A stretch of 64,000 nt of DNA from Candidatus Omnitrophota bacterium (GCA_041651115.1 JBAZJY010000002.1:73846-137845); one strand, 5' to 3'. Shown: positions 6,001-63,119, counted from the first letter of the stretch. Program-made: numbers and translations. The notes: generated by a model from the sequence alone, not told the origin.

Positions 6001-9000
6001 GAAAATCCGCGCGTTTCGGTTTTTCTGCCGCTGGAGGGCAGGGAAGAGTTAGACCATATTTTCGGCGGCAAGACAAAATGGGGAAAAGTCTGGTTTTTCC
6101 CGATCGGCCAGGCTGAACCTAAGACCGATACGCTTAAGCCGGATGGCCTGCTGGCGCTCGGGCCAAAAGAAACCGTTACCAGCTCGCCGCTGAAGGCCGG
6201 CGGGTTCTTTAAAACAGCTGCGTTGGTATCAATGTTGGTGCTCCTGCCGGCATTGGGCCAGCCATTATTCGGCCAGCAAGCTGAACTTTTATCTACCGAT
6301 GCGCAAGGCCGCGCAGAGTTTAAGAACAATGTCTCTCTTACTTTGGCATCTTTAGGGGGAGCCGTTGATATTACGGCAGCTGCCGAGGCTGATCGCCCCC
6401 GTACATACAATTACAACCCTCAAACCGGGATGCTGGAGATTACATATGCTATTCCGGGATATGTCAATGTCAGCAAACCCAACGACGTAGTTACAATAAC
6501 CGCGCGAAAAATTGTTCCGCAGTTTGCCCTTATTACCGATGAATCGGGAAGCCAGGATAAAGAAGCCATGACCGAGCAGGGCCGTCAGTTCGCAAGAGTC
6601 CTGCAGTTTATCCAGAATAGATATCCTGGCATGCGCAATATCCGAATAAGCACGGTTACCGATCCCAACCCTCAAGTTTCCTCTTATTCCGGTGCAGCCG
6701 ATGCGCAAGATTATTTTAATCAGCCGGTATTCCAGAGCGACCCGTTACTGGGAGCCACGCATTTCGTAGAGGCAGTAAGAAATACAATCAAATCTTTTAA
6801 TAATAGCGCTCCGGGGATAATTTTAGCAGCCTCTTCAGATTTTGAACAGGATCCTTTGGCCAGAGGCAGTGATCCTGTAAAACCGGAAGATTTGAGAGCT
6901 CCTTTTTATGAAATGGCCGGTGAATTAGAGGAGCTTAATACCCACCTTTTTATTGCAACGCAAAATGCTGACAGTCAAAAGAACATCCGAATATTGACGG
7001 ATGAGTATCTTAAAAAGTGCGAGGCGGAGGGAAAGGCGCCGTATATTCATTACCAGGTTGTAGGCGCGGAAAATATGAGCGCCGCATTTACCTCTTTTAT
7101 CGCTGAATCTGATTTTCCTGAACAAATTCCTTTACCTACGCAGAATAAGGATATCAAGATAGATTTTCTTTCTTCTGGCCCCGGCGGGCAAGACGCCTCC
7201 GGAGCGGTCAACCCGCAACAGGGGTCCCTTGCCGGTAGTATAAAAATAAACGGAAGCACTTTAGTCCTAAAAGATTTATTTAAGGGATTAGGGGATGTTG
7301 ATTCCGCGCAGGTCGTTTTTTCGTATGAACCCCTGATAGTTCCGCTACCATTAACGCACACCCCGCAGGATATTTACCTGGTGAAAGATTATAGCGGCAG
7401 CGTCAGGGATATAAAGTGGAATGCTTTCCTGAAAGACTTACTTATTAAATTAAAAGAGAGAGGAGACCGGATTATCGGCGGGACATTCTTTGGCCCGGAA
7501 GTCATCTCGGTAGCCGGTTTTGATGGCGTTTTAAGCGCCGTGGAATCGCCCAGGGGTGGGTATACCCATGGCTGGGCGGCCTTAAAAAAGATCTTCCAGC
7601 AAATGGACGATATGCCCGATAATGCGACATTATATTTTATTTCAGACGGCGTATTTAATGACCGGGATTTTACTGACGGGGAGAAAGAACGGGTCAAGGA
7701 AAAATTCCTGCAGAAATTAAAGGATAAAAACATACGCTTTGTCTGGATCGCGCCCGAAAAGGCTTCTCCGGGCGTAACCAAATTTTTGTCAAATGCCGTT
7801 AATAACGGAAAAGCAGCGGACAATCTCCGGGCTTCTTTAAGCCCCTATGCCACGCTGTTGACATTTGCCGTTGCTACCAACCCGGACAGGGGAGTGGTGT
7901 TTTATAAAAACGAAGATACGATTTCCGGCCTGGCCGAAGCCACGGGGCTTTATAGCAGGAAAGTTATCGATGTCCCGGAAAAATTCCCCATAAGGCAGGT
8001 GCAAATATTGTTTCAGGATGAGGGGAAAGAAAAGCGGATAGTAGTAGATATGCAAGACACAGAAGAAAAGCCCGGTTCCAGCTCGCCGATCACCGAGTTA
8101 TCCGGCCAGCTGCCTGAAGAAGAAGCCGCGCAGCTGGAAATACCATTTGTATACCCCCAGAATGCGCCTACCGTCATCTTGCCGCTGAAACTCAACGGCG
8201 CTGATAAAAAAGAATTAATGGAATATAAGGGTACCCTGGAGATTTTAAAAGCGAAATTATCAAATTACCTTGAACATCCCGAATATCTTAAAGACAAAGG
8301 AAAGCTCGAAAGCGTTTTGCCTATCGCCAAAGAGGCAATCAGCGAATTTTTGGGAAAAGTAGCTGCTGCCGATAAGTTAAGGCCGGTTTATGATACCTTT
8401 GCCCGGGCGGATTTTGATGCTCCTATAAACACAGATTTTGGCGACCAGTTTAATGGTTTTGTTGCTTATGTTCAAATGGGGATAAACCAACTTGATTCGC
8501 AAGGATCCATTTCATCGCGTTTAATTTTGAGCCTGATAACTACGCTTACCCAAACCATTGAATTTTTAGAGAACGCAATTTTAATCTTTGAAAAACTCAC
8601 TGGCCCCTCAAAGAGCGAATTTAAAACCAAGCTGTCAAACGGAGGATCGGGAAGCCCTTCCGTCCTCATATTGGATCTCAATGACCTTTTAAGCAGTGTC
8701 GGCTCAGAGATCAGCTCGCCGGTAAAAACAGAAGCTACGAATGATAAGGGCGGTATTGATTTTAGGGCGTTGCCGGTTGTGACGCAGCCGGTTTTAGGGA
8801 CGGTTCTCAGCCAAGGAGAAAAACGTCCCCAAATGGGGACGCTTTTACCTTGGACTGAGAACCGTCCCTCTCTTGACCAGGAATTACAGCAGATTAGGAA
8901 GATGATTGATTCCGGAATTGTTCCCTCAAGCGAGAGAATCAAGGAATATGCGCAGACTTGCGGCAGCCAGGACATAGATAAAATATTATCTTGTATCGCG

Positions 9001-9159
9001 GATATCTTAAGACTGGAAGAAGAGCGGGTTGAGGAAACCGATCCGCAGTTAAGACAGTTGGTCATGGTGCTTGAATCGGATAAGCCGGCAAATGAGATGC
9101 AGCTGGCAGTAGCCGCGATCTCGTTTTCCGCGAAAGATCCGGTTCTGGTGAAACCTTAA
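1..9159 (+). CDS. Giant multidomain protein, 5'-partial (frame open from nt 1; >3,050 aa). It has two GHKL/HATPase_c ATPase modules, an HExxH zincin-like motif, a vWA domain with a DxSGS MIDAS motif, and SSP-punctuated modules with internal signal-peptide-like segments.
   Basis: Frame 1 is open from nt 1 to the TAA at 9157-9159; the ORF track starts it at an in-frame GTG at 94. HATPase_c N/G1/G2 boxes are visible twice (NLIGNAIDAV..DNGGGIS..GGTGRGLALCKE at ~1290-1540; NLITNAVDEA..GTGLGLALIEEIVKEHGG at ~2440-2770). HEAAH lies at 4078-4092, DYSGSV at 7387-7401, and SSP junctions at 1667, 2864, 3506, 4649, 6179, 8078 and 8712. Confidence 0.7.
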   Translation, partial: NEYASELIRELIIPKLTREINTSKKYASLRQVYYSLILAQWFKAKFNSGSGKYENLINRKNLSGLTSQIFWDKQFYFQQYQDSFNKGEYNLKENRSTPFGQTIRTYMSGGLTLGNEISSAIQAQTIASKRSSSPLANKTFNQAAEIDANGNIRIAEGSVSAQEENIAILHALINQGPKAFLSGEKGDENRDRVIGIAEKFDFYVEELLDEEDEEDFFEYVLGLEKLLKLNPRVHQEPSEMFVHLDNLSHNLGHINNLFNIAIISFNKVDEVELRTGQMNMYLAEYQAIRKLLSWDGLNKINPEAVSDLFTDTIRYVVGSRALFKEIGDILNSNRDMIREKEEGLYSLIDGYLERARLVDSECTHNLGILKRLKEEIYEPGKKEPINIGVSVYEAIEPYLHNGHRVKFITDFRDQGMMVQANALRLSYTWTNLIGNAIDAVNKFKRTPEGRGVDGILTVSVRPVHTENTDIMEVSFQDNGGGISKAMSENDRLFLRGESDKQGGTGRGLALCKEAAEFHGGTISVEPRRVSEFDDRPEKTEDPKRGARFVIRLPVVASSPVAISEIAQKDSDKITREDKAAMLNHARQMDFYVQRIEEENDSQNLKAYATALAILEKEGVKPAEGVYAGKQIDFNIVSHDIGHMIIEMTVLLGILELVPVENDPAGYKKRALELWAKIQAWQAILDWEKTLGIAPGILSRMTEEIGSDLDSVGNFYNEVKDYFNRHVDSEIVADYSAAVDLRRGEREIIDFLLSELKNNISDPSRAAAIDEKFIINKLVWSYEKLKSANLNFQLRLRAENLQTYGNPLRVYSIFKNLITNAVDEAAGLATGSKFVKTPSGKFTEVRLTDEQKRTVEENKTIIIANKNIKEGDKDYAEFSIENIAYITPEMNAELYGGRKLFAKGQTGKESGTGLGLALIEEIVKEHGGSVDYYIKDIPGDDTLKKIQFVVKLPAVSSSPVSGDKVILSTAGTTISLSSGDQARIVSEFRRLANQITTEFSEEDFRESMGLIVGTHENGAYRITRLVPITEFEKGSSYDFLLPGKAQVIRIIENELRSGEQILGDYHNHSYERLRSFQKPGPSSEDAMGGGYLNIIGYENKIANNRLNIVLEPELDLDKITMDELANFDPSNSRVILYPYISPNRGLERRIIELDKIYLDALTKEVNSGATSSPMKLGDLKKLALGAMMAFYLSCLSFHNVNAQVNDTPAIDYYFTVSSQLQDSINNLVKKEFYDIVSLSPDQIKQLLTAKDLTEFKSVAESMLEKKGLSLPYYAPEDIADLVSSSKTGDSDIQRLIRIKGGLNYLSQHHPWVFRFVMFNAQRIIFDFTYNKSGGYENERKIYYGVLLDNYAIEEIAAFLAHEAAHSFLELMGMPVGGAAGESVAIYLGDLILKNANIRLGADKFILNLSSEAANRGHWGPWQDAYYEETYNKAGIELRDHLRHLEFITKLPATLLDIIIFGSKDQWEIYPEYRRLGLDALGEILESVESQPVETKEFFGVLFANYFDELWNAGDGLYRELIRAYLLKNTNYIPAAKQRLILDEVGNAQVDASSPVKAAGFLKTTALLSMLFFLPVFVQQSFSQSARAPTNVEMTIYMSRVKDLSEAKDLGSLLKIIKDDKAHALFKMQAMDAVQRMPMVMNKASDLMRALGAIEDIYNDPQTSNLINGNTVSWLEQIMKKYEIIWWGGKDTLFAPIDVYKGTAELIQQIAADHPDFIKPGSLAEFISRQRQPQLLYKPWPHYPVYQNPQFIAGVQKYNADTREYYSISMAVYDLLNLAGVGLSDTTISQATDYIMQQRQAFGQRVFFDKETTAIFIVTEGEESQKDVDLLRGIALDAGVLEENIHIFRGMKDKRKLATLISESTGPLTIATNMEGNEASWRMDPEGNQLSYAEFAKWLEARSILTNVNIILDGCLSTNLTEGMINLLYDPYDPASKAAAIRRGLPTVVSTSDDNHPSYADQQGQSFFYSELSLMPRVPGKPLLGRQILDTEIAGYKRMFVLENPRVSVFLPLEGREELDHIFGGKTKWGKVWFFPIGQAEPKTDTLKPDGLLALGPKETVTSSPLKAGGFFKTAALVSMLVLLPALGQPLFGQQAELLSTDAQGRAEFKNNVSLTLASLGGAVDITAAAEADRPRTYNYNPQTGMLEITYAIPGYVNVSKPNDVVTITARKIVPQFALITDESGSQDKEAMTEQGRQFARVLQFIQNRYPGMRNIRISTVTDPNPQVSSYSGAADAQDYFNQPVFQSDPLLGATHFVEAVRNTIKSFNNSAPGIILAASSDFEQDPLARGSDPVKPEDLRAPFYEMAGELEELNTHLFIATQNADSQKNIRILTDEYLKKCEAEGKAPYIHYQVVGAENMSAAFTSFIAESDFPEQIPLPTQNKDIKIDFLSSGPGGQDASGAVNPQQGSLAGSIKINGSTLVLKDLFKGLGDVDSAQVVFSYEPLIVPLPLTHTPQDIYLVKDYSGSVRDIKWNAFLKDLLIKLKERGDRIIGGTFFGPEVISVAGFDGVLSAVESPRGGYTHGWAALKKIFQQMDDMPDNATLYFISDGVFNDRDFTDGEKERVKEKFLQKLKDKNIRFVWIAPEKASPGVTKFLSNAVNNGKAADNLRASLSPYATLLTFAVATNPDRGVVFYKNEDTISGLAEATGLYSRKVIDVPEKFPIRQVQILFQDEGKEKRIVVDMQDTEEKPGSSSPITELSGQLPEEEAAQLEIPFVYPQNAPTVILPLKLNGADKKELMEYKGTLEILKAKLSNYLEHPEYLKDKGKLESVLPIAKEAISEFLGKVAAADKLRPVYDTFARADFDAPINTDFGDQFNGFVAYVQMGINQLDSQGSISSRLILSLITTLTQTIEFLENAILIFEKLTGPSKSEFKTKLSNGGSGSPSVLILDLNDLLSSVGSEISSPVKTEATNDKGGIDFRALPVVTQPVLGTVLSQGEKRPQMGTLLPWTENRPSLDQELQQIRKMIDSGIVPSSERIKEYAQTCGSQDIDKILSCIADILRLEEERVEETDPQLRQLVMVLESDKPANEMQLAVAAISFSAKDPVLVKP

Positions 9160-51983: not shown

Positions 51984-52973
51984 ATGCTTACCGTCGGCTT
52001 GACTTACGACTTAAAAAGCGATTACGAGTTTAAAAAAGGTGATCCACCGGACGCAAACGCGGAGTTTGACCATCCTTCGACAATAGACGTGATCGCAAAC
52101 GCGATCAGGTCCCAGGGCGTTAAAGTAAAAAAGATCGGTAATGCCGCAAACCTCCTTGAGCAGATCAATGACCTTAACGTGGCGATCGTTTTTAATATCT
52201 CTGAAGGCATCTCCGGCAGGAACCGGGAATCGCAGGTGCCGATACTCCTGGAAATGGCGGGTATTCCTTTTGTCGGCGCGGACGCCCTGACGCTTTCACT
52301 CACCCTTGATAAGATCATGGCGAAAAAGATCTTCATCGCCGAAAACATCCCCACCCCGAAATTCCGCGAGATAAAAAATACAGACTCGCTTTCCGACTCC
52401 GACCATCTGAAATTTCCCCTGATCGTAAAGCCGCGCTTTGAAGGTTCGTCAAAAGGCCTAAGCGAGAGTTCGCGCGTGGAAACTCCCGAAGAACTGGAAA
52501 AGCAGGCGGGATATATAATTAATACCTATAAACAGCCGGCATTGATCGAAGAATTCATTTCCGGCCAGGAATTCACCGTGGCAGTCGTGGGCAATGACCC
52601 GCCGGAAGTCCTGCCTGTGGTGCAGATAAAAATCGACGGGAAATTGCAATTGAACGATAAATTCTATACCTTCGCGCGTATCACTTCCAATCGCCTTGAA
52701 TATACCTGCCCGGCGCACATAGACGCAGGCCTGAACAAAAAAATTTCCGACCTGGCTTTAAAAACCTATAATGCGGTTGAGTGCCAAGATTTCGGCAGGG
52801 TTGATTTCCGGGTAGATAAGGACGGCAGGCCATACGTGCTGGAAATAAACCCATTGCCGTCTTTGTCCACCGAAGACGTATTTCCGCTCGTAGCCAAACA
52901 GATCGGCCTGACTTACGAGCAGATCATCGGCAGGATCTTAAGCAGCGCTTTAAAAAGGCATAACCTAAAATAA
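51984..52973 (+). CDS. ATP-grasp ligase, D-Ala-D-Ala-ligase-like family (not canonical Ddl).
   Basis: ATP-grasp motifs (LIVKP..GSSKG; EEFI.G.E.TV; VLEINPLP). Confidence 0.75.
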   Translation: MLTVGLTYDLKSDYEFKKGDPPDANAEFDHPSTIDVIANAIRSQGVKVKKIGNAANLLEQINDLNVAIVFNISEGISGRNRESQVPILLEMAGIPFVGADALTLSLTLDKIMAKKIFIAENIPTPKFREIKNTDSLSDSDHLKFPLIVKPRFEGSSKGLSESSRVETPEELEKQAGYIINTYKQPALIEEFISGQEFTVAVVGNDPPEVLPVVQIKIDGKLQLNDKFYTFARITSNRLEYTCPAHIDAGLNKKISDLALKTYNAVECQDFGRVDFRVDKDGRPYVLEINPLPSLSTEDVFPLVAKQIGLTYEQIIGRILSSALKRHNLK

Positions 52974-53996
52974 ATGAAAATCGCGCTGACCTATAATTTA
53001 AAAGAAAAGGACGAGACAAAACCTCCGGATTATTTTTCCGAATTTGATTCGGAGGAAACGATAAACGCGATCATCTCGGCGATTCGCAACCGCGGCCATG
53101 AAGTGTGCGGCGTAAACGCCGGACAGGAAAACCTTTTTTCGTATTTTAAAAGGAACCGCGTGGATATGGTATTTAATATCGCCGAGGGCAGGGCGGGAAA
53201 ATTCCGCGAATCAGAGATCCCGGCAATACTGGATTACCTTGATATCCCCTACACCGGCTCAAATACATTTTCCCTTGCCCTTGCTTTGAATAAAGCGGTG
53301 ACTAAAAAAATCCTCAAGGCAGAGAATATTCCTACCCCGCAATTCCAGGTATTTTCAAAAGGAAACGAAGACCTTGACCAGGCGTTAAAATTCCCCCTTA
53401 TCGTCAAGCCGAATTGCGAAGGCTCTGCCAAGGGCATTAACGCTTCAAACGTTGTCAATTCCAAAGACGGCTTGTACAAAAAAGCCGAGGAAATCATCGG
53501 CCTCTATAAACAGGAGGTGCTGGTTGAAGAATTTATCCACGGCAAGGAATTGACTGTGGGCGTGCTTGAGAACGGCAAGGCCACGGCGCTGCCGATCTTA
53601 GAGATCGATTTTACCGCCTGCGTTAAGAGCGGTGAATATTTTTACAGCTGGCGGATGAAAGAATTTCAGGGCAATGCCGAGCTTGGCCTGATGCCTAATT
53701 TTTACTGCCCGGCGCGGCTGGACAAAGAGACTGAAGCAAAAGTAAAAGAGATTGCTATCAGGACGCATCAGGCAGTAGGATGCTTTGACATCTCCCGCAC
53801 GGATATCAGGCTGGATGAAAATAATGTGCCCTATGTGCTGGAAATAAACCCTTTGCCCGGGCTTGACCCCAAAGAATCTAATTTCCCGATCATGGCATAT
53901 GCAGCCGGGATGAAATACGACGAGCTTATAGATGCGATACTCACCAGCGCTGCCGAGCGCTATTTCGGTAAAAAAGCAATCAGCCGGAATAATTAA
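52974..53996 (+). CDS. Second ATP-grasp ligase, paralogous to the preceding gene.
   Basis: Same motif set (LIVKPN.EGSAKG; EEFI.G.ELTV; VLEINPLPG). Confidence 0.75.
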   Translation: MKIALTYNLKEKDETKPPDYFSEFDSEETINAIISAIRNRGHEVCGVNAGQENLFSYFKRNRVDMVFNIAEGRAGKFRESEIPAILDYLDIPYTGSNTFSLALALNKAVTKKILKAENIPTPQFQVFSKGNEDLDQALKFPLIVKPNCEGSAKGINASNVVNSKDGLYKKAEEIIGLYKQEVLVEEFIHGKELTVGVLENGKATALPILEIDFTACVKSGEYFYSWRMKEFQGNAELGLMPNFYCPARLDKETEAKVKEIAIRTHQAVGCFDISRTDIRLDENNVPYVLEINPLPGLDPKESNFPIMAYAAGMKYDELIDAILTSAAERYFGKKAISRNN

Positions 53997-54013
53997 GAGG
54001 AGGGAAAGATTAA

Positions 54014-55198
54014 TTGAGTAACCTATTGACGGTTGAAACAAAAGCGCAGCAGGAAGCTGTAACGCCGCCACGCCAATCAAGAAAGTCCCTGGATTATCAA
54101 CAGATCAGCCTTTATAAAGACGTTAATCCCCTGGACTGGGAAGATTGGCATTGGCAGATCAAGCACCGCATCCGCGCAAAAGAAGAACTGTCGCAGGTAA
54201 TTAAATTAACTCCCGAAGAAGAAGAAGGCTTAAAAAAGGCAAGCGGAAGGCTGTCATTGGCAATCACCCCTTATTGGGCGACTTTGATTGACCCGGATGA
54301 CCCGGATTGCCCGCTACGCCGGCAATCCGTGCCGGTAAAAACGGAATTCGTGGTCTCTCCGCATGAAATGGTTGATCCTTGCGCAGAAGACCGTGATTCC
54401 CCTGCTCCGCATCTTGTGCACAGGTATCCGGACAGGGTCCTGCTCCTGGCTACTGACCACTGCGCAATGTATTGCCGCCATTGCACCAGAAGAAGGCTGG
54501 TAGGCGAACGCAGCATTGAAGAAACTGATTTTTCCACCCGTTTTGACGCGGCGATAGATTATATTAAAGCCAACCGCAAGATCCGCGACGTGCTGATCTC
54601 CGGCGGAGATCCCTTAACGCTGGAAGACGATCAATTGGAGAACCTGCTGCAGAAAATACGCTCTATTTCCCACGTGGAATTCCTGCGCATCGGTACCCGG
54701 GTCCCGGTAACCCTGCCGCAGCGCATCACGGAAAAACTAGCAACAATGCTGAAAAAATATTCGCCCGTGTGGATGAGCATACATTTTAACCATCCAAAAG
54801 AAATAACCAAGCGCTGCAAACTCGCCTGCGATATGCTTTCTGATTCAGGCATACCCTTGGGCAGCCAGAGCGTGCTTTTAAAAGGCATTAATGACCGGCC
54901 GTATATCATGAAAAAGCTGGTGCAGGAGCTCTTGCAGATCAGGGTAAGGCCGTATTATATTTACCAGTGCGATCCGGTAAAAGGCACGCAGCATTTCCGC
55001 ACTCCCGTGGCAGTAGGCATCAACATTATGGAAAAACTGCGCGGCCATACTTCCGGTTATGCAGTGCCTACCTATGTGATTGACGGGCCGGGCGGCGGCG
55101 GTAAGATCCCCGTAGGCCCGAATTACATCCTTTCGCAGGCAAAAGGCAAGTACGTGCTGCGTAATTACAAAGGAAAGATCTACACCTACCTGGAATAA
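54014..55198 (+). CDS. Lysine 2,3-aminomutase family (KamA-like) radical SAM / PLP enzyme.
   Basis: CAMYCRHCTRRR (CxxxCxxC) and the KamA-type C-terminus (YVIDGPGGGGKIPV). TTG start with a strong RBS. Confidence 0.85.
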   Translation: MSNLLTVETKAQQEAVTPPRQSRKSLDYQQISLYKDVNPLDWEDWHWQIKHRIRAKEELSQVIKLTPEEEEGLKKASGRLSLAITPYWATLIDPDDPDCPLRRQSVPVKTEFVVSPHEMVDPCAEDRDSPAPHLVHRYPDRVLLLATDHCAMYCRHCTRRRLVGERSIEETDFSTRFDAAIDYIKANRKIRDVLISGGDPLTLEDDQLENLLQKIRSISHVEFLRIGTRVPVTLPQRITEKLATMLKKYSPVWMSIHFNHPKEITKRCKLACDMLSDSGIPLGSQSVLLKGINDRPYIMKKLVQELLQIRVRPYYIYQCDPVKGTQHFRTPVAVGINIMEKLRGHTSGYAVPTYVIDGPGGGGKIPVGPNYILSQAKGKYVLRNYKGKIYTYLE

Positions 55199-55202
55199 CC
55201 GC

Positions 55203-55231
55203 TTGACCCCCCACATCCCCAGAGATATAAT
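55203..55231 (+). promoter_or_regulatory. Strong promoter (TTGACC-17-TATAAT) with a ~100-nt 5'UTR containing a CCATAGC-N4-GCTATGG hairpin.
   Basis: Read directly upstream of the EF-G-like gene. Confidence 0.5.
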
Positions 55232-55334
55232 AAGTCCATAGCATACGCTATGGGATGGGAATGACATAAGCTGCTGGTATTGATACTCTTTTCTCCCTCT
55301 ATTAATAACTTCCTATTAAAAAAGGAGTGCTAAT

Positions 55335-57266
55335 ATGGACGCTAAGAACAAGAGAAGTATCATCCTTTTGGGCCACTCACATTCCGGAAAAACAAGCTTG
55401 GCAGAAAGCCTGCTTTTCCGGTGTAAAGCCACCAGCCGAAAGGGCAGCGTTTTAGAAGGCAATACGGTCAGCGATTACGGCTGGGATGAGATTGAGCGTA
55501 AGATCTCCATCAACGACAGCTTTATGTTCTGCGATTTCCAGAATACCCGCATCCAGGTCATAGATTCCCCCGGTTATATTGATTTCTTTGGCGAAGTAAT
55601 TGCCGGCATCCGCGCCGCAGATAACGCGGTGGTAGTAATTGACGCGATAGAGGGCGTGCAGATAGGCACGGAAAAGGCATGGGCGCTTGCAGAAGAACTC
55701 TCTATGCCGCGGCTCATTTTTGTCAATAAATCCGATCTTGACGGCATAGATAATAACAAAGTGATCGCGGATATTAAGGCTTCGCTTTCCAAAAAGGCAA
55801 TCCCCTTAGATGACGGGGTGGAACTGATCGAACTGGTTGCTGAAAGCGATGACGCTCTCCTGGAAAAATACCTTGCGCAGGGAAGTCTTTCGCCTGAAGA
55901 AGTAAACATCGGTTTGCGCAAGGCAGTTGCCAATGCCAAGGTCTTTCCCATAATTTTCGGCTCGGCGCTGAAAGATTCAGGCATTGAAGGCCTGCTTCAG
56001 GCAATAAAAGATTACTGCGCTGCGCCTGATGAGCGGCCTAGCCCGGAGCTGGTTGAGGGCCAGCTTACTTTAAAGCCGGATGCGCCATTTTCCGGGTTCG
56101 TATTTAAAAGTATCATTGATCCTTATGTCGGGCAGCTAAGCCTGGTAAAGATCTTTTCCGGTAAACTCGCGGCAAATTCCAGTTTTTACAATAATACCCA
56201 GAAAACATCAGAACGTTTCGGCCAGATTTACCTGCCCCAAGGCAAGGAACAGCGTTCAATAGATTTTGCGGATTGCGGCGATATTATCGCCATCCCCAAA
56301 TTAAAGCAAACGCACACTTCCGATTCTTTGTGCGAGCAGGCACATCCGGTAACTTTTAAGCCGATGGCCTTCCCTGAGCCAATGATGTCTGCTTCGGTAA
56401 AGCCGCGTTCGCGCCAGGACGAAGAAAAAATTTCCCAGTCTACGGCAAAATTAACTGCCGAAGACCCGACGATAAAAGTATACCGCGACCCGGAGACTAA
56501 AGAAGAGATCATCTCCGGTTTAGGCGACCTGCATTTGAACGTTGCCGTGGGCAGGCTCAAAAAACGGTTTAACGTGGAAGTTGACCTTGGCACGCCCAAA
56601 GTCCCGTATAAAGAAACAGTTACCAAGACAGTGCGCATGCAGGGCAAATACAAGCGCCAGTCCGGAGGAAGAGGCCAGTACGGCGATGTCTGGATTGAAG
56701 TGAGGCCGCTTGAGCCGGGCAAGGGATTTGAATTCGTGGATAAGATCTACGGGGGCGCGATCCCGCGTAACTTTATTCCGTCGGTAGAAAAAGGCGTGCG
56801 CCAGGCAATGGCTGAAGGCGTGGTTGCCGGATATCCGGTGGTAGATATGCAGGTGGTGCTGCAGGACGGCTCGTATCATGAAGTTGATTCATCGGACATG
56901 GCATTTCAGATTGCCGGGTCAATGGCGTTGAGAAAGGCGACAATGGAAGCGCATCCTGCGCTACTTGAGCCGATCATGGAAGTGGAAGTTTATATCCCGG
57001 AAGATTTCGTGGGGCAGGTTTCCGGTGACCTTAATTCCCGGCGCGGCAGGCCGCTGGGCATGGAAGTAAAAGGCAAGACCAATATTGTCAAGGCGCAGGT
57101 GCCCTTGGCAGAAATGTTCACTTACGGTAATGACTTGCGTTCAATGACTCAAGGTAAAGGCACGTTCACGATGAAATTCCTGCATTATGAACAAGTGCCT
57201 GCGAAGATCGCAAATAACATTATCAGCAGGTATCAGGCGCAAGCCAAAAAAGACGAGCAGGAATAA
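55335..57266 (+). CDS. Elongation factor G-like translational GTPase paralog with a divergent G1 box.
   Basis: Five-domain EF-G-like architecture (643 aa). G1 is GHSHSGKTS rather than AHIDAGKTT. DxxG (DSPGY) and NKxD (NKSD) are present. Confidence 0.85.
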   Translation: MDAKNKRSIILLGHSHSGKTSLAESLLFRCKATSRKGSVLEGNTVSDYGWDEIERKISINDSFMFCDFQNTRIQVIDSPGYIDFFGEVIAGIRAADNAVVVIDAIEGVQIGTEKAWALAEELSMPRLIFVNKSDLDGIDNNKVIADIKASLSKKAIPLDDGVELIELVAESDDALLEKYLAQGSLSPEEVNIGLRKAVANAKVFPIIFGSALKDSGIEGLLQAIKDYCAAPDERPSPELVEGQLTLKPDAPFSGFVFKSIIDPYVGQLSLVKIFSGKLAANSSFYNNTQKTSERFGQIYLPQGKEQRSIDFADCGDIIAIPKLKQTHTSDSLCEQAHPVTFKPMAFPEPMMSASVKPRSRQDEEKISQSTAKLTAEDPTIKVYRDPETKEEIISGLGDLHLNVAVGRLKKRFNVEVDLGTPKVPYKETVTKTVRMQGKYKRQSGGRGQYGDVWIEVRPLEPGKGFEFVDKIYGGAIPRNFIPSVEKGVRQAMAEGVVAGYPVVDMQVVLQDGSYHEVDSSDMAFQIAGSMALRKATMEAHPALLEPIMEVEVYIPEDFVGQVSGDLNSRRGRPLGMEVKGKTNIVKAQVPLAEMFTYGNDLRSMTQGKGTFTMKFLHYEQVPAKIANNIISRYQAQAKKDEQE

Positions 57267-57313
57267 TTCCCGCCGCTTTTAACTAATCTGCGTAAGAAGA
57301 AAGGAACGATTAC

Positions 57314-58018
57314 GTGAAAATAGGAATTTTTGGCATTGAAGGATTTTATCAAGGCAAGGCTAACATCATTGACAGCCGCGTAAAAGCCCTGAAAGTAATG
57401 TTTAATTCTCCCAAAGAGGTTTATATTCAGGCTGACGTGGTGATTGATGCGGATAAATTAGTTGAAGCTGACGGGATTATTGCTCCGGAAAGCGCGAAAC
57501 TGGATTTGATCGTTAATGATATGGAGTTTGTAGAGACGAGGCTCGGACGGGCAACTGATGATCTGGAAAAAGGCTTGTTTACCCGCTTCAAGGAATTGCT
57601 GGATAAAGAAAAGTTCCTTTCTGAGGCGCAGCTTGGTGAAGACGAAAAGAAGCTGATTGCCGGTTACTCTCTGTTAACGATCAAGCCGGTTTATCTTGCT
57701 AAACCTGAAGAGATAGAGAATAAAGAGAAGCTGCTTTTTAATGCGTATTATTGCTTTGGCTATATTTCCTTTTTTACTGCCGGTGATAAAGACGCGCATT
57801 CATGGCCGATCAAGAAAGGCGCGAATGCCTGGGAGGCATCCGGGGCAATTCATTCAGATATTCAGAAGGGCTTTATCCGCGCGGAAGTTGTGAGCTACAA
57901 TGACCTCACTGCCGACGGCAGCCTTTCCAAGGCGCGTTCCAGTAATCACATTCGCCTTGAAATGAAGGAATATATCGTCCAAGACGGCGATTATATCGTC
58001 TTTAGGTGTAATAAATAA
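57314..58018 (+). CDS. YchF/Obg-like protein with a degenerate P-loop and a C-terminal TGS domain.
   Basis: N-terminus MKIGIFGIEGFYQGKA lacks GxxxxGK[ST]. The C-terminus QDGDYIVFRCN is TGS-like. GTG start; 234 aa versus about 363 for YchF. Confidence 0.5.
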   Translation: MKIGIFGIEGFYQGKANIIDSRVKALKVMFNSPKEVYIQADVVIDADKLVEADGIIAPESAKLDLIVNDMEFVETRLGRATDDLEKGLFTRFKELLDKEKFLSEAQLGEDEKKLIAGYSLLTIKPVYLAKPEEIENKEKLLFNAYYCFGYISFFTAGDKDAHSWPIKKGANAWEASGAIHSDIQKGFIRAEVVSYNDLTADGSLSKARSSNHIRLEMKEYIVQDGDYIVFRCNK

Positions 58019-58071
58019 CTGTTAGTTTTAGCTTCTCCTTTCGTCTATTAACATAGAAAGGAGAGGCAATC

Positions 58072-58617
58072 ATGAAAGAACTGGTTCCGGAAGAGATCAT
58101 TGAGCGTAAGATTTTTTTGATTCGTGGGCAAAAGGTGATGCTAAGCACGCATCTGGCAGAATTATATGGCGTAGAAGCCAAAGTGCTTATTCAGGCGGTC
58201 AAGCGTAATATTAAAAGATTCCCGGAAGATTTTATGTTTCAACTTACTTGGCGGGAGGCTTTATGTTTGAAGTCACAAATTGTGACTTCAAGTTCAAGGT
58301 CACAATTTGTGACCTTGGGAAAAGGTAAGAATATTAAATATTTACCCTACGCTTTTACCGAACAGGGAGTTGCAATGCTTTCCAGTGTATTGAGAAGCGA
58401 TAGGGCGGTTCAGGTGAATATTGCTATTATGCGGGCTTTCGTAAAATTACGGCAGTTTTTATCTGCGCATAAGGAGCTTACGCATAAATTGGATGAGTTG
58501 GAACGCCGGGTTGCAATGCATGACGGCAAGATTAAGGATATATTTGAGGCAATAAGGCAGCTTATGGCGGCGCCGGTTGAAGAAAAGAGAAAGATCGCCG
58601 GCTTTAGCCGTATATAG
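58072..58617 (+). CDS. ORF6N-domain protein (phage antirepressor / KilA-N-related family).
   Basis: IERKIFLIRGQKVMLSTHLAELYGVEAKVLIQAVKRNIKRFPEDFMFQLT is a near-canonical ORF6N N-terminus. Confidence 0.8.
   Translation: MKELVPEEIIERKIFLIRGQKVMLSTHLAELYGVEAKVLIQAVKRNIKRFPEDFMFQLTWREALCLKSQIVTSSSRSQFVTLGKGKNIKYLPYAFTEQGVAMLSSVLRSDRAVQVNIAIMRAFVKLRQFLSAHKELTHKLDELERRVAMHDGKIKDIFEAIRQLMAAPVEEKRKIAGFSRI
58270..58316. repeat. Two tandem perfect palindromes (AAGTCACAAATTGTGACTT; AAGGTCACAATTTGTGACCTT) inside the ORF6N coding sequence.
   Basis: Read directly. They encode a duplicated SQIVTS/SQFVTL peptide. Confidence 0.6.
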
Positions 58618-58853
58618 CAACGTTCTTTCGCAATTTTGCGTCTGGCTTGTCTTGGCTTTTCGCAGGGACGCTCGCCCCGCCCAGCGTGCGCCTAACAAGA
58701 CGTTTTATATAACTCAATAATTCCCAAGGTATTATAAAACAAATCCGGGTTAATTCCGGAGATACGATATCTAATTGCAGCGTTTAAGCGGATGGATTGG
58801 GTTGGTTTGGAGCAGGGCGTAGGAGGCTTGGAGCCAGCCGGAGAAAGGAAGGT

Positions 58854-59327
58854 ATGCGTAAATTATTGACGAGTGTAATTTTATTATTATCTGTCGCAAG
58901 CCTTACAGCTCAAGCACGGGATAGTGATATAAAACTTTTGGGTTTTGAGAGTAGAAGTACAGGTTCTGTCACGGGGCGGGCCGATCCTGATAAGCCAGGA
59001 TTTTATTACGCTGAGGCTCCAAGGATAAGAGAAAAGAAGGTGGAATCCGGAGTATTAGTTATTACCGTAGCTAACATTTTCGCAAATTGTGCTCAGAAAT
59101 TTGAAGGTAGTATTGAAGTCAAAAGTGGTATTTTAAACCTTAAGTATATAGAAAAAGAAATGAACTGGAAAGAAATGATGCTTTGTAAAGGACAGCACAA
59201 TTTAATTTATAAAATAGAAGGAATCAAGGATATTGATCGTTATAAATTTCAATTAAACGGGGAAGACATAGATTCATCAATAAAATATACTGATGGAATT
59301 CGGACAGCCACCGCTCCTCATCAATAA
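58854..59327 (+). CDS. Small secreted hypothetical protein.
   Basis: Signal peptide MRKLLTSVILLLSVASLTAQA; RBS GGAGAAAGGAAGG. Confidence 0.45.
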   Translation: MRKLLTSVILLLSVASLTAQARDSDIKLLGFESRSTGSVTGRADPDKPGFYYAEAPRIREKKVESGVLVITVANIFANCAQKFEGSIEVKSGILNLKYIEKEMNWKEMMLCKGQHNLIYKIEGIKDIDRYKFQLNGEDIDSSIKYTDGIRTATAPHQ

Positions 59328-59355
59328 AATAATTCCGGGGACAGGGTACTTAATT

Positions 59356-60153
59356 ATGGGTATATTTAGAGGGCGGGTGATCGGGGTAACTGTGGTTCTG
59401 GCGGCGTTGTTGTTCGCGCCTTCTGCCGCCTTCACCGAGGAGCCGGCAGGAGAAGAATTTTTTGACGGCCTCCTGGGCCAGCTGGATAGTATGGATGTTT
59501 CAGTCAGAAAAAAAGCAGTCATTGAGCTGGCAAGCCAGATGCGGCGCAGCACGATAAACCCCAATCTTCCGAAAGCCAAGATAAGCGCAAGGCTTCAGGA
59601 ATTTATCGGGGAAGAGAAGGTAAAATCCATAAAAACACAAGCCATCCAGGCATTGGTCTATTATGACCAGCAAGAAGGAAAGCTTGATTATCTATCGGTT
59701 TTCCGGGATTTTCTTTCCTGCGTTGATGATACAAATATTTCTTTCCGCGACTCCGGGCTTATGGATGATATCCTTCAGGAAATTTTCAGCTTTGCCTGCA
59801 TAAAGGATGGCAAAAAACTAAGAGACGATATTTACGCTTTGCTTTGCAGCCAGATCAAAAACGGAACCTCCGAGCGCCGGCTGCGGAACCTGATCCGGAT
59901 CGTGGCTAAGGCATTCTATTATGATGAATTCAGGGACGATCGGCCGGCTGATCTCTTTGCCGTGATCGCCAAGGCCATATCCACAAACTCACAGTATTAT
60001 TTGTCGGATTATGCTGCCGGGATCCTTTTGCTTAATTATATCGGCGATTCTAAAATGCGCGACGGAAAAATCATCGTTGATATGGCTTTGCGAAGCTCGG
60101 ATAATGCAACGCGCTATGTGGCAACCCGGATCGCAGAGGAGTTGGAACAATAA
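59356..60153 (+). CDS. Secreted hypothetical alpha-helical (HEAT/ARM-like) repeat protein.
   Basis: Signal peptide followed by a repetitive helical sequence. Confidence 0.4.
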   Translation: MGIFRGRVIGVTVVLAALLFAPSAAFTEEPAGEEFFDGLLGQLDSMDVSVRKKAVIELASQMRRSTINPNLPKAKISARLQEFIGEEKVKSIKTQAIQALVYYDQQEGKLDYLSVFRDFLSCVDDTNISFRDSGLMDDILQEIFSFACIKDGKKLRDDIYALLCSQIKNGTSERRLRNLIRIVAKAFYYDEFRDDRPADLFAVIAKAISTNSQYYLSDYAAGILLLNYIGDSKMRDGKIIVDMALRSSDNATRYVATRIAEELEQ

Positions 60154-60195: not shown

Positions 60196-61752
60196 ATGGT
60201 TAAAATCAAGCGGGCGTTGATCAGCGTGTCGGATAAAACGGGAGTATTGGAACTGGCAAAAACCTTGAATAAATTCGGCGTGGAAATTCTTTCTACCGGC
60301 GGCACGGCAAAAATGATACGCGACCACGGTATTGCGGTAAAAGAAGTATCCGAGTACACCGGATTCCCCGAAATGTTAGACGGCAGGGTAAAGACCCTGC
60401 ATCCGCGGATCCATGGCGGCTTACTTGCCTTAAGAGACAAAGAGGAACATATGCGCGCATTAAAAAACCATGATATCGGCCTGATTGATATGGTGGTGGT
60501 TAACTTATATCCCTTCGAGCAAACGATCAATAAACCCGGGGTAACCATTGAAGAAGCCATTGAGAACATTGATATCGGCGGTCCGAGCATGCTGCGCTCT
60601 GCGGCAAAGAATGCCAGGTCAGTGGCAGTAGTCTGCAATCCTTCGCGCTACGGCCAGATCATTGATGAGCTGAATAGAAATGACGGCTATCTTCCTACGA
60701 AACTGATGCGCGAGTTAGGTCTGGAGGTATTTAAGACAACCAGCCATTATGACGGGATAATCTATAATTATTTTAAAAATCAATATGATCCGGGAGTAAA
60801 AAGCGCATTCCCTGCTCAAATGTCCATTAGTTTTGATAAACTGCAAGACCTGCGTTACGGCGAGAACCCGCATCAAAAAGCAGCCTTTTATAAGTTGGCA
60901 AACGAGGCAGCAGGATTGACTGCAATGAAGCAGCTTTGGGGTAAAGAGTTGTCGTTTAATAACATCCTTGACCTGAATGCCGCGGTAAATATCGTCAAGG
61001 AATTCGCGCTTCCGGCAGTAGTATTCATTAAACACAATAATCCCTGCGGCGTTGCCGAAAATAAAGATATGCTTAAGGCATACCGCGATGCCTGGAGCTG
61101 TGATAAGCTTTCCGCATTTGGCGGGGTATTAAGCATTAATAGAAAGGTTGATCTTGCTTTGGCAAAGTTAATTGCCAAGAGCGGGTTCCTGGAATGTATT
61201 GTTTGCCCGGGCTTTGTCCCGAATGCGCTTGAACTATTAAAAGCCAAGAAAAATTTAAGGCTTTTGGAACTTCCGGGCATGCTGGACAAGACCGCAGGCC
61301 TTGATTTTAAAAAAGTAAACGGCGGCTTATTACTGCAGGATGAAGATAGCCTGACGCTGGACGAGAACAACCTGAAGGTGGTAACTAAAATAAAGCCGAC
61401 AAAAGCGCAGATGGAATCACTCCTCTTTGCCTGGAAAGTGGCAAAACACGTTAAGTCAAACGCGATTATCCTTACCCGCGGCACAAAGACTGTGGGTATT
61501 GGCGCAGGCCAGATGTCGCGTGTTGATTCGGTATTTATCTCCACGAAGAAAGCCGGCAAATTAGCCCTTGGCTCTGTGCTTGCTTCAGACGCCTTCTTTC
61601 CCAAAGAAGACGCGATCCAACTGGCTGCCAAATACAAGATCAAGGCGATCATTCAGCCGGGCGGCTCCATTGCGGATGAACAGATCATCAAAATGGCTGA
61701 TAAACACAAGATCCCGATGGTTACAACCGGCATCAGGCATTTCCGCCACTAA
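60196..61752 (+). CDS. purH: Bifunctional AICAR transformylase / IMP cyclohydrolase.
   Basis: MGS-like N-terminus (ALISVSDKTG..LSTGGTAK) and the AICARFT domain; 518 aa. Confidence 0.92.
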   Translation: MVKIKRALISVSDKTGVLELAKTLNKFGVEILSTGGTAKMIRDHGIAVKEVSEYTGFPEMLDGRVKTLHPRIHGGLLALRDKEEHMRALKNHDIGLIDMVVVNLYPFEQTINKPGVTIEEAIENIDIGGPSMLRSAAKNARSVAVVCNPSRYGQIIDELNRNDGYLPTKLMRELGLEVFKTTSHYDGIIYNYFKNQYDPGVKSAFPAQMSISFDKLQDLRYGENPHQKAAFYKLANEAAGLTAMKQLWGKELSFNNILDLNAAVNIVKEFALPAVVFIKHNNPCGVAENKDMLKAYRDAWSCDKLSAFGGVLSINRKVDLALAKLIAKSGFLECIVCPGFVPNALELLKAKKNLRLLELPGMLDKTAGLDFKKVNGGLLLQDEDSLTLDENNLKVVTKIKPTKAQMESLLFAWKVAKHVKSNAIILTRGTKTVGIGAGQMSRVDSVFISTKKAGKLALGSVLASDAFFPKEDAIQLAAKYKIKAIIQPGGSIADEQIIKMADKHKIPMVTTGIRHFRH

Positions 61753-63119
61753 TGACTTATCCGCAGGCGATCAGCTACCTTGGATCGTTAATCAATTACG
61801 AAAGATTCAGCGGCTGGGCCTATAGGGAATCTTTTAGGCTGGAGCGCTTCCGGGATTTTTTGCATAGCATCGGCGATCCGCAAGCCGGGTTAAAATGCGT
61901 GCATGTTGCCGGCAGCAAAGGAAAGGGCTCTACCTGCGCGTTCATCAGCTATGTTTTGCGCAGGTTAGGATATAATGTCGGGCTTTATACCTCTCCGCAC
62001 TTATCAGATTTCCGGGAAAGAATACGCATATTAGGTGTCAGGTGTCAGGTGTCAGGTGTCAGGCAAGGTGGGGATTTTGAAGGGATGATCCCCAGGAAAG
62101 ACCTGGCGCGGTTAGTAACCGGGCTTAAGCCGGCAATAGATAAATTTCATCGGGCTAAAAAGCATGAGCCGCTGTCTTTTTTTGAAGTTTATACGGCGCT
62201 GGCGTTTATTTATTTTAAAGAAAAGAAAGTTGATTTCGCGGTTTTAGAAACAGGCCTTGGCGGAAGACTGGATGCCACTAATACGGTTGACCCGCTGGTA
62301 TGCGTGATCACGCCGATCAGTTATGAGCATACACAGCAATTAGGCAATACGCTTAAAGCGATTGCCGGGGAAAAAGCAGGGATCATTAAATCCAAAAGAT
62401 CCATCGTGATCAGCGCGGAGCAAAAAGAAGAAGTCGCCAGAGTGATCAGGGAAAGATGCAAGCACACAGGCGCAAGATTATATCGGGTTGGGAAAGATAC
62501 AAAGTATAAAGAAAACAGAAATGGAAGTTTCACGGTCCGGGGGATTAAAGCCGGCTACTCCGGATTAAGGATCAGGCTTTTAGGCCCGCATCAAATGGCT
62601 AATGCCAGCGCTGCCATTGCAGCAGTAGAAGCGTTGGGTTTTTACGGCAGTAAAGCTGCCGGTTCTATCAGGCAAGGGCTTTATGAGACGGTTTGGCCGG
62701 GAAGATGCGAGGTTATTTTGCGCAGGCCGACAATTGTTTTAGACGGCGCGCAAAACAGCGCTTCAGCCGGAGTTTTAAAGAAGGCGATCAGGGAGAACTT
62801 CTCCGCCGCAGGCGGATCCGCCTCCGGCGGAAAGTATAAGAAACTGATCCTTGTGCTGGGCATTTCCAGCGATAAGGATATCAAAGGCATTTGCCGGCAG
62901 TTCCGCGGCTTTGTTGACAGGGTTATCCTTACTAAAGCTGATAACCCGCGAGCAATAGATCCGGAAAAGCTGGCAGGAAATTTTTGCGGTAAAGAAATTT
63001 TTATCACAAAAAACGTTAAGGAAGCAGGGAGATTAGCCTTAATGCTTGCCGGCCAGGAGGATTTAATTGTCGTGACCGGTTCTTTATTTGTGGTCGGAGA
63101 ATTCAGGGATGAAAGATAA
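61752..63119 (+). CDS. folC: Folylpolyglutamate synthase / dihydrofolate synthase.
   Basis: P-loop HVAGSKGKGST and Mur-ligase-family motifs. Confidence 0.88.
   Translation: MTYPQAISYLGSLINYERFSGWAYRESFRLERFRDFLHSIGDPQAGLKCVHVAGSKGKGSTCAFISYVLRRLGYNVGLYTSPHLSDFRERIRILGVRCQVSGVRQGGDFEGMIPRKDLARLVTGLKPAIDKFHRAKKHEPLSFFEVYTALAFIYFKEKKVDFAVLETGLGGRLDATNTVDPLVCVITPISYEHTQQLGNTLKAIAGEKAGIIKSKRSIVISAEQKEEVARVIRERCKHTGARLYRVGKDTKYKENRNGSFTVRGIKAGYSGLRIRLLGPHQMANASAAIAAVEALGFYGSKAAGSIRQGLYETVWPGRCEVILRRPTIVLDGAQNSASAGVLKKAIRENFSAAGGSASGGKYKKLILVLGISSDKDIKGICRQFRGFVDRVILTKADNPRAIDPEKLAGNFCGKEIFITKNVKEAGRLALMLAGQEDLIVVTGSLFVVGEFRDER
62044..62073 (+). repeat. (GGTGTCA)x4 heptanucleotide tandem repeat inside folC.
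   Basis: Read directly. It encodes GVRCQVSGVR, an insertion-like segment. Confidence 0.8.

Follow-up and report, generated by a model that had tools for sequence, protein, structure and literature searches.

What do two diverged relatives of translation-associated nucleoside triphosphatases (NTPases) do side by side in a bacterial genome, and do they act together? The question is raised by a 64,000-nucleotide (nt) stretch of DNA, here called the window, which is part of a 579,436-bp contig from a metagenome-assembled genome (MAG) of Candidatus Omnitrophota. On its + strand, to which all window coordinates below refer unless stated otherwise, lie a gene at 55335-57266 for a 643-amino-acid (aa) protein resembling elongation factor G (EF-G) and, directly downstream at 57314-58018, a gene for a 234-aa protein of the YchF/OLA1 family that lacks the nucleotide-binding motifs and that we call short YchF (sYchF). 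An initial annotation had proposed that both are diverged relatives of translation-associated NTPases, and our analysis bears this out: the larger protein carries the Pfam domains of EF-G, and the smaller one is homologous to YchF throughout. Taking the explanation as a whole, we consider it reasonably probable that the locus holds an EF-G2-type paralog next to a nucleotide-independent YchF derivative, and that the two do not form an obligate pair.

A YchF scaffold without its NTPase machinery

Short YchF is the more unusual half of the locus. Its gene begins with GTG behind the strong ribosome-binding site (RBS) AAAGGAA, and its product matches MFA5156546.1, a 'DUF933 domain-containing protein'. 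Pfam finds only PF06071 in it, at residues 151-233 (E 1.7e-30, 105.4 bits vs a cutoff of 27), which confirms the TGS-like C-terminus suggested earlier; the G domain PF01926 is not detected by Pfam, though it is detected in canonical YchFs. With the YchF model TIGR00092 the protein scores 109.2 bits, mainly from the C-terminal 99 residues, and so stays below the cutoff of 279.2. A profile-profile alignment of 95 short sequences with canonical YchFs spans the entire protein, placing residues 1-234 on residues 3-363 of E. coli YchF with a probability of 100% and E 6e-91. In E. coli numbering, the residues deleted from sYchF are 12-37, with Walker A, helix alpha-1 and switch I; 73-92, with DxxG and switch II; 104-114, the segment with the catalytic His114; 117-127, an adjacent segment of the G domain; 146-154, the tip of the helical hairpin; and about 210-262, with G4 (NxxE), G5 and helix alpha-7. 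The initial annotation had described a YchF-like protein with a degenerate P-loop. It was right about the MKIGIFG N-terminus and the missing Walker A motif (GxxxxGK[ST]), but the degenerate P-loop has to be rejected: by the profile-profile alignment the true P-loop is deleted, and the 'GK' at residues 14-15 of sYchF corresponds to G42-V43 of E. coli YchF. Relatives vary at position 15, where K, R, N, T, I and Q are all found.

An AlphaFold2 model of sYchF, with a predicted local distance difference test score (pLDDT) of 95.6 and a predicted template modelling score (pTM) of 0.86, consists of a small sheet, a helical hairpin and a TGS-like domain. The sheet belongs to a residual G-domain core, residues 1-58 (57314-57487), for which DSSP assigns strands at 2-5, 14-18, 38-43 and 54-58 and helices at 21-30 and 46-51. 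Residues 59-97 (57488-57604) form the hairpin, the counterpart of the YchF coiled-coil domain; its helices cover residues 59-79 and 83-97 and in the alignment correspond to alpha-4 and alpha-5 of E. coli. The TGS-like domain, residues about 150-234 (57761-58015; PF06071), contains the YchF hallmark IHSDIQKGFIRAE, and residues 143-233 match the YchFs of E. coli, H. influenzae and Thermus. When the model was compared with the PDB by Foldseek, ranks 1-15 were all YchF/OLA1 (E 1e-15 to 1e-20, TM-scores on the query, TMq, of 0.69-0.80), and there were no other strong matches. Thus sYchF shares with YchF/OLA1 (TIGR00092; PDB 1JAL, 2DBY, 2OHF, 8KIE) the layout of core sheet, hairpin and TGS-like domain as well as the hallmark motifs DxRL, DLEFVExRL, FFTAG and IHxDxxxGFIRAE. 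It differs in that Walker A, switch I, DxxG, His114, NxxE and G5 are all gone, in its length (234 aa vs about 350-370 aa), in having no G domain by Pfam, and in a helical tip that is 9 residues shorter and without the lysines that bind H62. Short YchF is a YchF/OLA1 derivative, homologous from end to end, from which the ATPase machinery has been cut out.

The short form is widespread. Its close clusters number at least 120 (229-236 aa, 65-100% identical), and wherever their sources are named these are Omnitrophota, except for one MAG labelled Deltaproteobacteria. A search of 1.84 billion representatives yielded about 30 clusters, at 50% identity, of proteins of 225-235 aa that match sYchF end to end, while for canonical YchFs (340-370 aa) the match is confined to 100 C-terminal residues and a brief segment in the middle. 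In GTDB, about 70 species genomes have full-length matches at 36-82% identity; most are labelled Omnitrophota or Verrucomicrobiota, and a few MAGs are labelled otherwise. Moreover, an alignment of 58 sequences has 48 invariant columns over the whole length, most of them in the TGS-like domain. Strong purifying selection thus acts on the short form in both Omnitrophota and Verrucomicrobiota. In a neighbour-joining tree of short and canonical YchFs, crude in that it uses BLOSUM distances and has no bootstrap, the short forms of Omnitrophota and Verrucomicrobiota make up one pure clade of 73 sequences; the remaining short clusters scatter, and we draw no claim of origin from this tree. What is new here is a YchF/OLA1 scaffold with the whole NTPase machinery excised and yet stable across two phyla. 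In databases it goes under the name 'DUF933 domain-containing protein' or the misleading 'ribosome-binding ATPase YchF', and a full-text literature search found no paper mentioning DUF933 or a motif-less short form of YchF.

Few NTPases are universally conserved and yet still debated in their role, and YchF/OLA1 is one of them. Could it be that Omnitrophota and much of Verrucomicrobiota have no YchF-family protein but sYchF, with nucleotide binding wholly lost? This stronger claim seems doubtful to us. When the closest canonical YchF (P0264) was used as the query, no Omnitrophota or Verrucomicrobiota source name appeared among its best 120 matches, and tblastn found no canonical YchF in the 64-kb window. 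For YchF we know of no precedent comparable to the rule, discussed below, that a genome's single EF-G is of type EFG I. If the claim were true, the core cellular role of YchF would need no ATP hydrolysis, and if sYchF replaces the canonical protein it would show which part of YchF carries the conserved function. There would also be a practical side: TIGR00092 and COG0012 are used as universal marker genes, and a protein so far under the TIGR00092 cutoff may affect marker-based completeness estimates or phylogenies of these phyla. As a side observation, two representatives filed as 'canonical' YchFs (P0262 and P0263) have internal duplicated segments and no N-terminus, and look like chimeras of assembly or gene calling.

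What might a YchF without its NTPase machinery do? In the structure of E. coli YchF on the 50S subunit, binding occurs mainly via the helical domain, whose tip lysines K149, K152, K156 and K159 contact H62 of the 23S rRNA, and helix alpha-7, which belongs to the ATPase domain, contacts the 50S subunit too. The TGS domain has been proposed to contact helix h5 of the 16S rRNA, and the helical hairpin and TGS-like domain together are the proposed nucleic-acid-binding cleft. We suggest that sYchF would no longer bind or hydrolyse nucleotide and that, via this helical-TGS cleft, it probably still binds RNA or the ribosome in a nucleotide-independent role. One point tells against the suggestion. In sYchF, K149 and K152 are deleted and K156 and K159 align with non-basic residues; because both the lysine-rich tip and alpha-7 are missing, ribosome binding in the E. 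coli mode is doubtful, and the mode of sYchF would have to be a different one.

It is also conceivable that sYchF has left translation altogether and serves as a nucleotide-independent protein-protein adaptor or regulator, for example by titrating the partners of canonical YchF. This would accord with the description of YchF as multifunctional and with a gene neighbourhood that differs between the phyla and indicates no particular function. However, what is most conserved in sYchF is the TGS-like domain and the helical hairpin, that is, the proposed nucleic-acid-binding cleft of YchF, and at the hairpin tip R76 is invariant and R79 nearly so. We regard an adaptor as unlikely and continue to prefer a nucleotide-independent role in RNA or ribosome binding.

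Gene order, promoter and the question of a pair

The initial annotation had seen in the two proteins a functional pair tied to a beta-amino-acid cluster. On the + strand of the window the order is two Ddl-like ATP-grasp genes, a KamA-family aminomutase gene (kamA), the EF-G-like gene, sYchF, an ORF6N-domain gene, two open reading frames (ORFs) and purH. How constant is this order? We derived synteny from tblastn and ORF clustering over 80 loci. The Omnitrophota block runs ATP-grasp, ATP-grasp, kamA, a site that may or may not hold the EF-G-like gene, sYchF, purH, a FolC-like Mur ligase, mnmE and folE. In 17 loci the EF-G-like gene immediately precedes sYchF and has the same orientation, and 10 of the 27 Omnitrophota loci lack it at the syntenic site: kamA is followed directly by sYchF in eight (L008, L010, L024, L028, L035, L041, L043 and L051), and other ORFs fill the site in two (L001 and L013). 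About 45 further sYchF loci, mostly labelled Verrucomicrobiota, have no kamA, no purH and no adjacent EF-G paralog; in at least six loci of the Verrucomicrobiota type sYchF lies instead between a gene for a TPR protein and uvrA, the latter identified by one Pfam scan, of L015, together with clustering. The existence of loci with sYchF but without the EF-G-like gene implies that the adjacency of the two is lineage-specific and that the EF-G unit was gained or lost independently of sYchF. As a side observation, an ORF of 366 aa without a Pfam match lies between kamA and the EF-G-like gene in locus L004 (643-1743 of that locus), and L013 has a corresponding ORF, likewise without a Pfam match, between kamA and sYchF.

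The promoter points the same way. The consensus promoter and leader of about 100 nt reported by the initial annotation are both present: a sigma-70-type promoter, TTGACC-17-TATAAT, lies at 55203-55231 with 11/12 consensus matches, followed by the leader at 55232-55334 with a hairpin and, at 55322-55327, the strong RBS AAGGAG. Upstream of the orthologous EF-G gene the promoter is found with 11/12 matches in 11 of 17 related loci and with 10/12 in one more, and thus recurs in 12 of the 17, while only 15 of 2000 random 260-nt windows (0.75%) reach 11/12 matches. It is not found upstream of sYchF in 11 loci without the EF-G paralog, nor in 27 loci of the Verrucomicrobiota type. Its recurrence across loci indicates that the promoter is real and that it belongs to the EF-G unit. 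The EF-G paralog and its promoter are a unit that is either present or absent between kamA and sYchF.

The leader itself is less telling. The 7-bp hairpin for which a long structured 5' untranslated region had been claimed does exist (CCATAGC-ATAC-GCTATGG, 55236-55253), but neither unusual structure nor conservation could be found: the leader RNA folds at -18.3 kcal/mol vs a shuffle mean of -18.06 (z = -0.08), and Rfam, run in E-value mode over 54900-58900, gave no match. Among relatives anything from 15 to 152 nt separates the -10 box from the ATG, the hairpin falls within 25 nt that the closest relative (L003) lacks, and five aligned upstream regions have only the promoter and the RBS in common. 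The leader is neither conserved nor unusually structured, the hairpin is specific to the window, and we dropped the idea of a structured leader or riboswitch. At the other end of the gene, the 47-nt spacer at 57267-57313, which holds the RBS AAAGGAA of sYchF at 57300-57306, contains no + strand terminator, its sole terminator-like site being on the minus strand. Because the gap is so short and free of a + strand terminator, the EF-G-like gene and sYchF are likely to be co-transcribed.

Could the two genes then form one system, for ribosome rescue, splitting or protection, possibly linked to kamA and the ATP-grasp genes? They are adjacent and co-oriented in the window and in 17 loci, with the terminator-less 47-nt gap between them, and canonical YchF has been reported to promote ribosome splitting. 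In addition, two loci of Opitutaceae type carry another, more diverged EFG II-type gene about 1.7 kb downstream of sYchF on the opposite strand (L049 8424-10538 and L055 8577-10676, both -); its product of about 700 aa has GHASSGKT, DAPGY or DSPGY, and NALD for NKxD. Against this, sYchF occurs without the paralog at the site in 10 Omnitrophota loci and in the roughly 45 loci of other context, the promoter is tied to the EF-G unit only, and the genes that follow sYchF (purH, FolC-like, mnmE, folE) are housekeeping genes. Ribosome protection, which the initial annotation had offered as a possible function, fares no better. The 643-aa protein resembles Tet(M) and Tet(O) in its length of about 640 aa and its EF-G-like domain order, but it scores 330 bits vs a cutoff of 775 with the tet_protect model NF012153 and about 200 bits with the solved Tet(M)/Tet(O) structures; it is not a member of that family, and there is no likeness beyond shared ancestry. 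A single system thus appears very unlikely, and the proposed tie to the beta-amino-acid cluster is weakened by the same 10 Omnitrophota loci and by the uvrA/TPR context elsewhere. The EF-G paralog and sYchF are not an obligate pair, and a functional partnership between them is not supported.

The EF-G-like protein and its place among EF-Gs

The 643-aa protein, with an ATG start, is identical to MFA5156545.1 ('elongation factor G') and has all five domains of an EF-G (G, II, III, IV and V; Pfam GTP_EFTU, EF-G_D2, EFG_III, EFG_IV and EFG_C). Solved EF-Gs, at 691-704 aa, are longer by 48-61 aa, in agreement with the shortening of about 60 aa noted earlier. The gene is conserved and not a pseudogene. 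Family counts below refer to 119 relatives with identities of 66-100%, none of them under 630 aa and the majority of 641-652 aa; whenever a source is named, it is Omnitrophota or Omnitrophica. Where does this family belong? Margus et al. (2011, PMC3150367) describe EFG II by a G1 box of the form GhxxxGKT, a relaxed G2 with Ser instead of Thr, deletions in the G' subdomain, which is the main deletion-prone region of EFG II, and residues that differ from EFG I at type I signature positions. In the 643-aa protein the G1 box or P-loop at residues 13-22 (55371-55400) reads GHSHSGKTSL, and across the family G-H-[AS]-[QH]-S-G-K-T-[ST]-L, with G13, G18, K19 and T20 invariant. The initial annotation had called GHSHSGKTS non-canonical; it is indeed not the box of EFG I, but it is no oddity, since GHxxxGKT followed by Leu is normal for EFG II and still fits Walker A (GxxxxGKT). 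G2 is RKISI instead of the RGITI of EF-G (family form RK-x-SI), with Ser replacing Thr. About 50 residues of G' are deleted at residues about 155-163 (55797-55823), where query residues 155-163 correspond to residues 161-215 of Thermus EF-G and query residue 163 to position 211 of the NCBIfam profile; the acidic G' helix ESDDALLEKYL is still present after the deletion.

We mapped the type I signature positions (Table 1 of PMC3150367) by alignment to Thermus EF-G numbering. At Thermus 19, where EFG I has Ala and EFG II Gly, the protein has G13; at 28 (Thr in EFG I, Leu in EFG II) it has L22; at 64 (Thr vs Ser) S58; at 316 (Ile vs Thr) S259; at 360 (Ala vs Gly) G303; and at 379 (Gly vs Lys, with Lys/Arg) K322. 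Five of the six are exact EFG II residues and none is of EFG I, and S259 is hydrophilic like the EFG II Thr. Within the family G13 and S58 are found in 119/119 sequences and L22 in 117/119, and every member has G303 and K322. Among NCBIfam models NF009381 (PRK12740.1-5) scores highest, with 811.6 bits vs a cutoff of 583, while the canonical EF-G equivalog TIGR00484 is narrowly missed (641.2 bits vs 659.4); the PRK12740 series includes the EF-G2 model, and its best member outscores the canonical EF-G model. By these residues the protein appears to be an EF-G2-type (EFG II) paralog of EF-G. The initial annotation had set clustering with EF-G2 against its own proposal of a specialised factor, and the G1 box, being the normal form of EFG II/EF-G2, tells against that proposal. 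The protein would thus belong to a known kind, and what is new is an unusually well-preserved nucleotide pocket together with well-preserved domains III-V.

The switch II region gives the family its most striking feature. Residues 77-81 (55563-55577) read DSPGY and align with DTPGH of Thermus EF-G, so that Tyr81 (55575-55577) occupies the position of the catalytic His. A check of this position, recommended by the initial annotation, found Tyr in 70 and Phe in 49 (41%) of the 119 relatives, and His in none. The Ile and Asp of the canonical P-loop are also replaced, by Ala/Ser and Gln/His. The guanine-nucleotide pocket is otherwise complete (GxxxxGKT, the G2 Ser, DxPG, NKxD and GSA); G4 is NKSD in this protein, and NKxD and the G5 GSA are kept across the 119 relatives. 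In domain IV the tip loops GKYKRQSGGRGQYG (residues 437-450) and SYHEVDSS (513-520), at 56643-56894, align with those of canonical EF-G, which places the tip of this domain in the decoding centre, and their family forms GK[YF]KRQSGGRGQYG and S[YF]H[ED]VDSS hardly vary among the 119 sequences.

How, then, does the protein compare with its relatives? With EFG II/EF-G2 (Thermus thermophilus 1WDT, Mycobacterium smegmatis, Bacteroides thetaiotaomicron) it shares the five domains, GhxxxGKT-Leu, the G2 Ser and the loss of RGITI, the signature Gly and Lys of domain II, the G' deletion, a conserved basic loop I in domain IV (K440, R441) and, within the window, the absence of str-operon genes adjoining its own gene. 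With the EF-G2 of M. smegmatis it shares the Tyr at the catalytic position, but unlike that protein it keeps G4 (NKxD), G5 (GSA) and the P-loop His. Conservation of its domains III-V goes well beyond what has been described for EFG II at large, and the Phe that replaces Tyr in part of the Omnitrophota family is a further difference. Canonical EF-G has in common with it the domain order, domains II-V, the loops SGGRGQYG and YHEVDSS and the acidic G' helix; in contrast, the 643-aa protein has Gly and not Ala in G1, the two P-loop replacements, RKISI, Tyr for His and some 50 fewer G' residues, falls below the TIGR00484 cutoff, and is encoded between kamA and sYchF.

The canonical apparatus of GTPase activation (catalytic His, P-loop Ile and Asp, switch I Ile) is lost, and from these features we judge that the protein very probably binds GTP and the ribosome. 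We propose that it would occupy the EF-G site of the ribosome with GTP bound but hydrolyse little or none of it and, by analogy, that it may be a slow or stress-specific translocase or a ribosome-binding factor, beside a canonical EF-G encoded elsewhere. This role matches reports on Bacteroides and mycobacterial EF-G2. According to a 2026 preprint, the catalytic position is taken by Tyr98 in the EF-G2 of M. smegmatis, the H88Y exchange leaves EF-G1 with almost no ribosome-dependent GTPase activity, and Bacteroides EF-G2 supports slow translocation. If our placement is right, Omnitrophota join the lineages that hold an EF-G2-type factor. The family also shows that behind the plain record name 'elongation factor G' there may be a protein that lacks the catalytic histidine, and its intact guanine pocket combined with a strongly conserved domain IV offers a clean natural test of the extent of translocation without GTP hydrolysis. 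That sYchF and the His-less EF-G paralog act as a hydrolysis-avoiding mode of translation is a further possibility, though an unlikely one.

Several points speak against this reading and have to be set beside it. The score with NF009377 (PRK12740.1-1), the EF-G2 equivalog, is 575 bits vs a cutoff of 890, and that with the Bacteroides EF-G2 model 491 bits vs 1000. In a phmmer search of PDB sequences canonical Thermus EF-G is the best match (545 bits, of which 460 come from domains II-V, over 468 residues, and 83 from the G domain), ahead of Thermus EF-G2 (1WDT) with 451 bits. The assignment to EFG II thus rests on signature residues and not on a tree, tblastn finds no other EF-G within the 64-kb window, and the functions of both the 643-aa and the 234-aa protein are read from their sequences only. 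Thermus EF-G2, moreover, presumably has Tyr at the catalytic position as well. The same 2026 preprint reports that Thermus EF-G2 retains GTPase and translocation activity, and because of this activity the loss of the His is no proof of a dead GTPase.

Might the 643-aa protein after all be the organism's only, housekeeping EF-G, with a G domain that evolved in Omnitrophota to do without the catalytic His? NCBI and JGI name it 'elongation factor G', it lies above the cutoffs of three NCBIfam models of that name, its domains II-V are very near canonical EF-G (the 460 bits over 468 residues), its domain IV loops show no variation, the promoter is strong and conserved, and the window contains no second EF-G. 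On the other hand, 10 of 27 Omnitrophota loci lack the gene at the syntenic position, which, barring relocation, one would not expect of an essential gene in single copy; the EFG II signature residues are present; and the His-to-Tyr exchange abolishes the GTPase activity of canonical EF-G (2026 preprint). In the survey of 305 genomes by Margus et al. (PMC3150367), furthermore, a lone EF-G gene was always EFG I. Since lone EF-G genes are always EFG I and this gene is missing from a third of the syntenic sites, its status as a paralog is likely, and we hold a sole housekeeping EF-G to be highly improbable.

Flanking DNA and neighbouring genes

The initial annotation had also allowed for the case that the YchF-like ORF is a truncated pseudogene with upstream remnants. 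Although this 234-aa ORF is 130 aa shorter than YchF and far under the TIGR00092 cutoff, the idea of a pseudogene, be it truncated or in decay, is refuted, given that the flanking DNA contains no remnants of the missing segments and the EF-G stop codon lies 47 nt upstream, that the deletions are clean and in frame, that the length is constant at 225-236 aa in the at least 120 close clusters, the roughly 30 clusters at 50% identity and the roughly 70 species genomes, that the 48 invariant columns span the full length, and that the model has a pLDDT of 95.6.

Upstream, the ATP-grasp genes (51984-52973 and 52974-53996) and kamA (54014-55198) were identified by Pfam and NCBIfam. The two Ddl-like ATP-grasp ligases are paralogs with 40% mutual identity, and the block that they form with the KamA-family 2,3-aminomutase (51984-55198) is kept in about 20 Omnitrophota loci. 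With the model of the lysine 2,3-aminomutase AblA the KamA-family protein scores 523.7 bits, the cutoff being 525.4. The product of the block could be a beta-amino-acid peptide or modification.

Downstream, about 2.1 kb (58072-60153), in which GC content goes down to 0.43, separate sYchF from purH (60196-61752). The ORF6N-domain gene at 58072-58617 encodes an ORF6N/Rha-like DNA-binding protein, and the ORFs at 58797-59327 and 59293-60153 have no Pfam match. Because purH directly adjoins sYchF in 23 related loci, the segment 58072-60153 looks like a recent insertion of foreign DNA. The run that follows, seen at 60196-63119 and in related loci, comprises purH, the FolC-like Mur-ligase gene, mnmE and folE (GTP cyclohydrolase I), of which the last three are related to folate or to tRNA modification. 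At the start of the window, 94-9159 on the + strand is occupied by a single ORF of 3021 aa.

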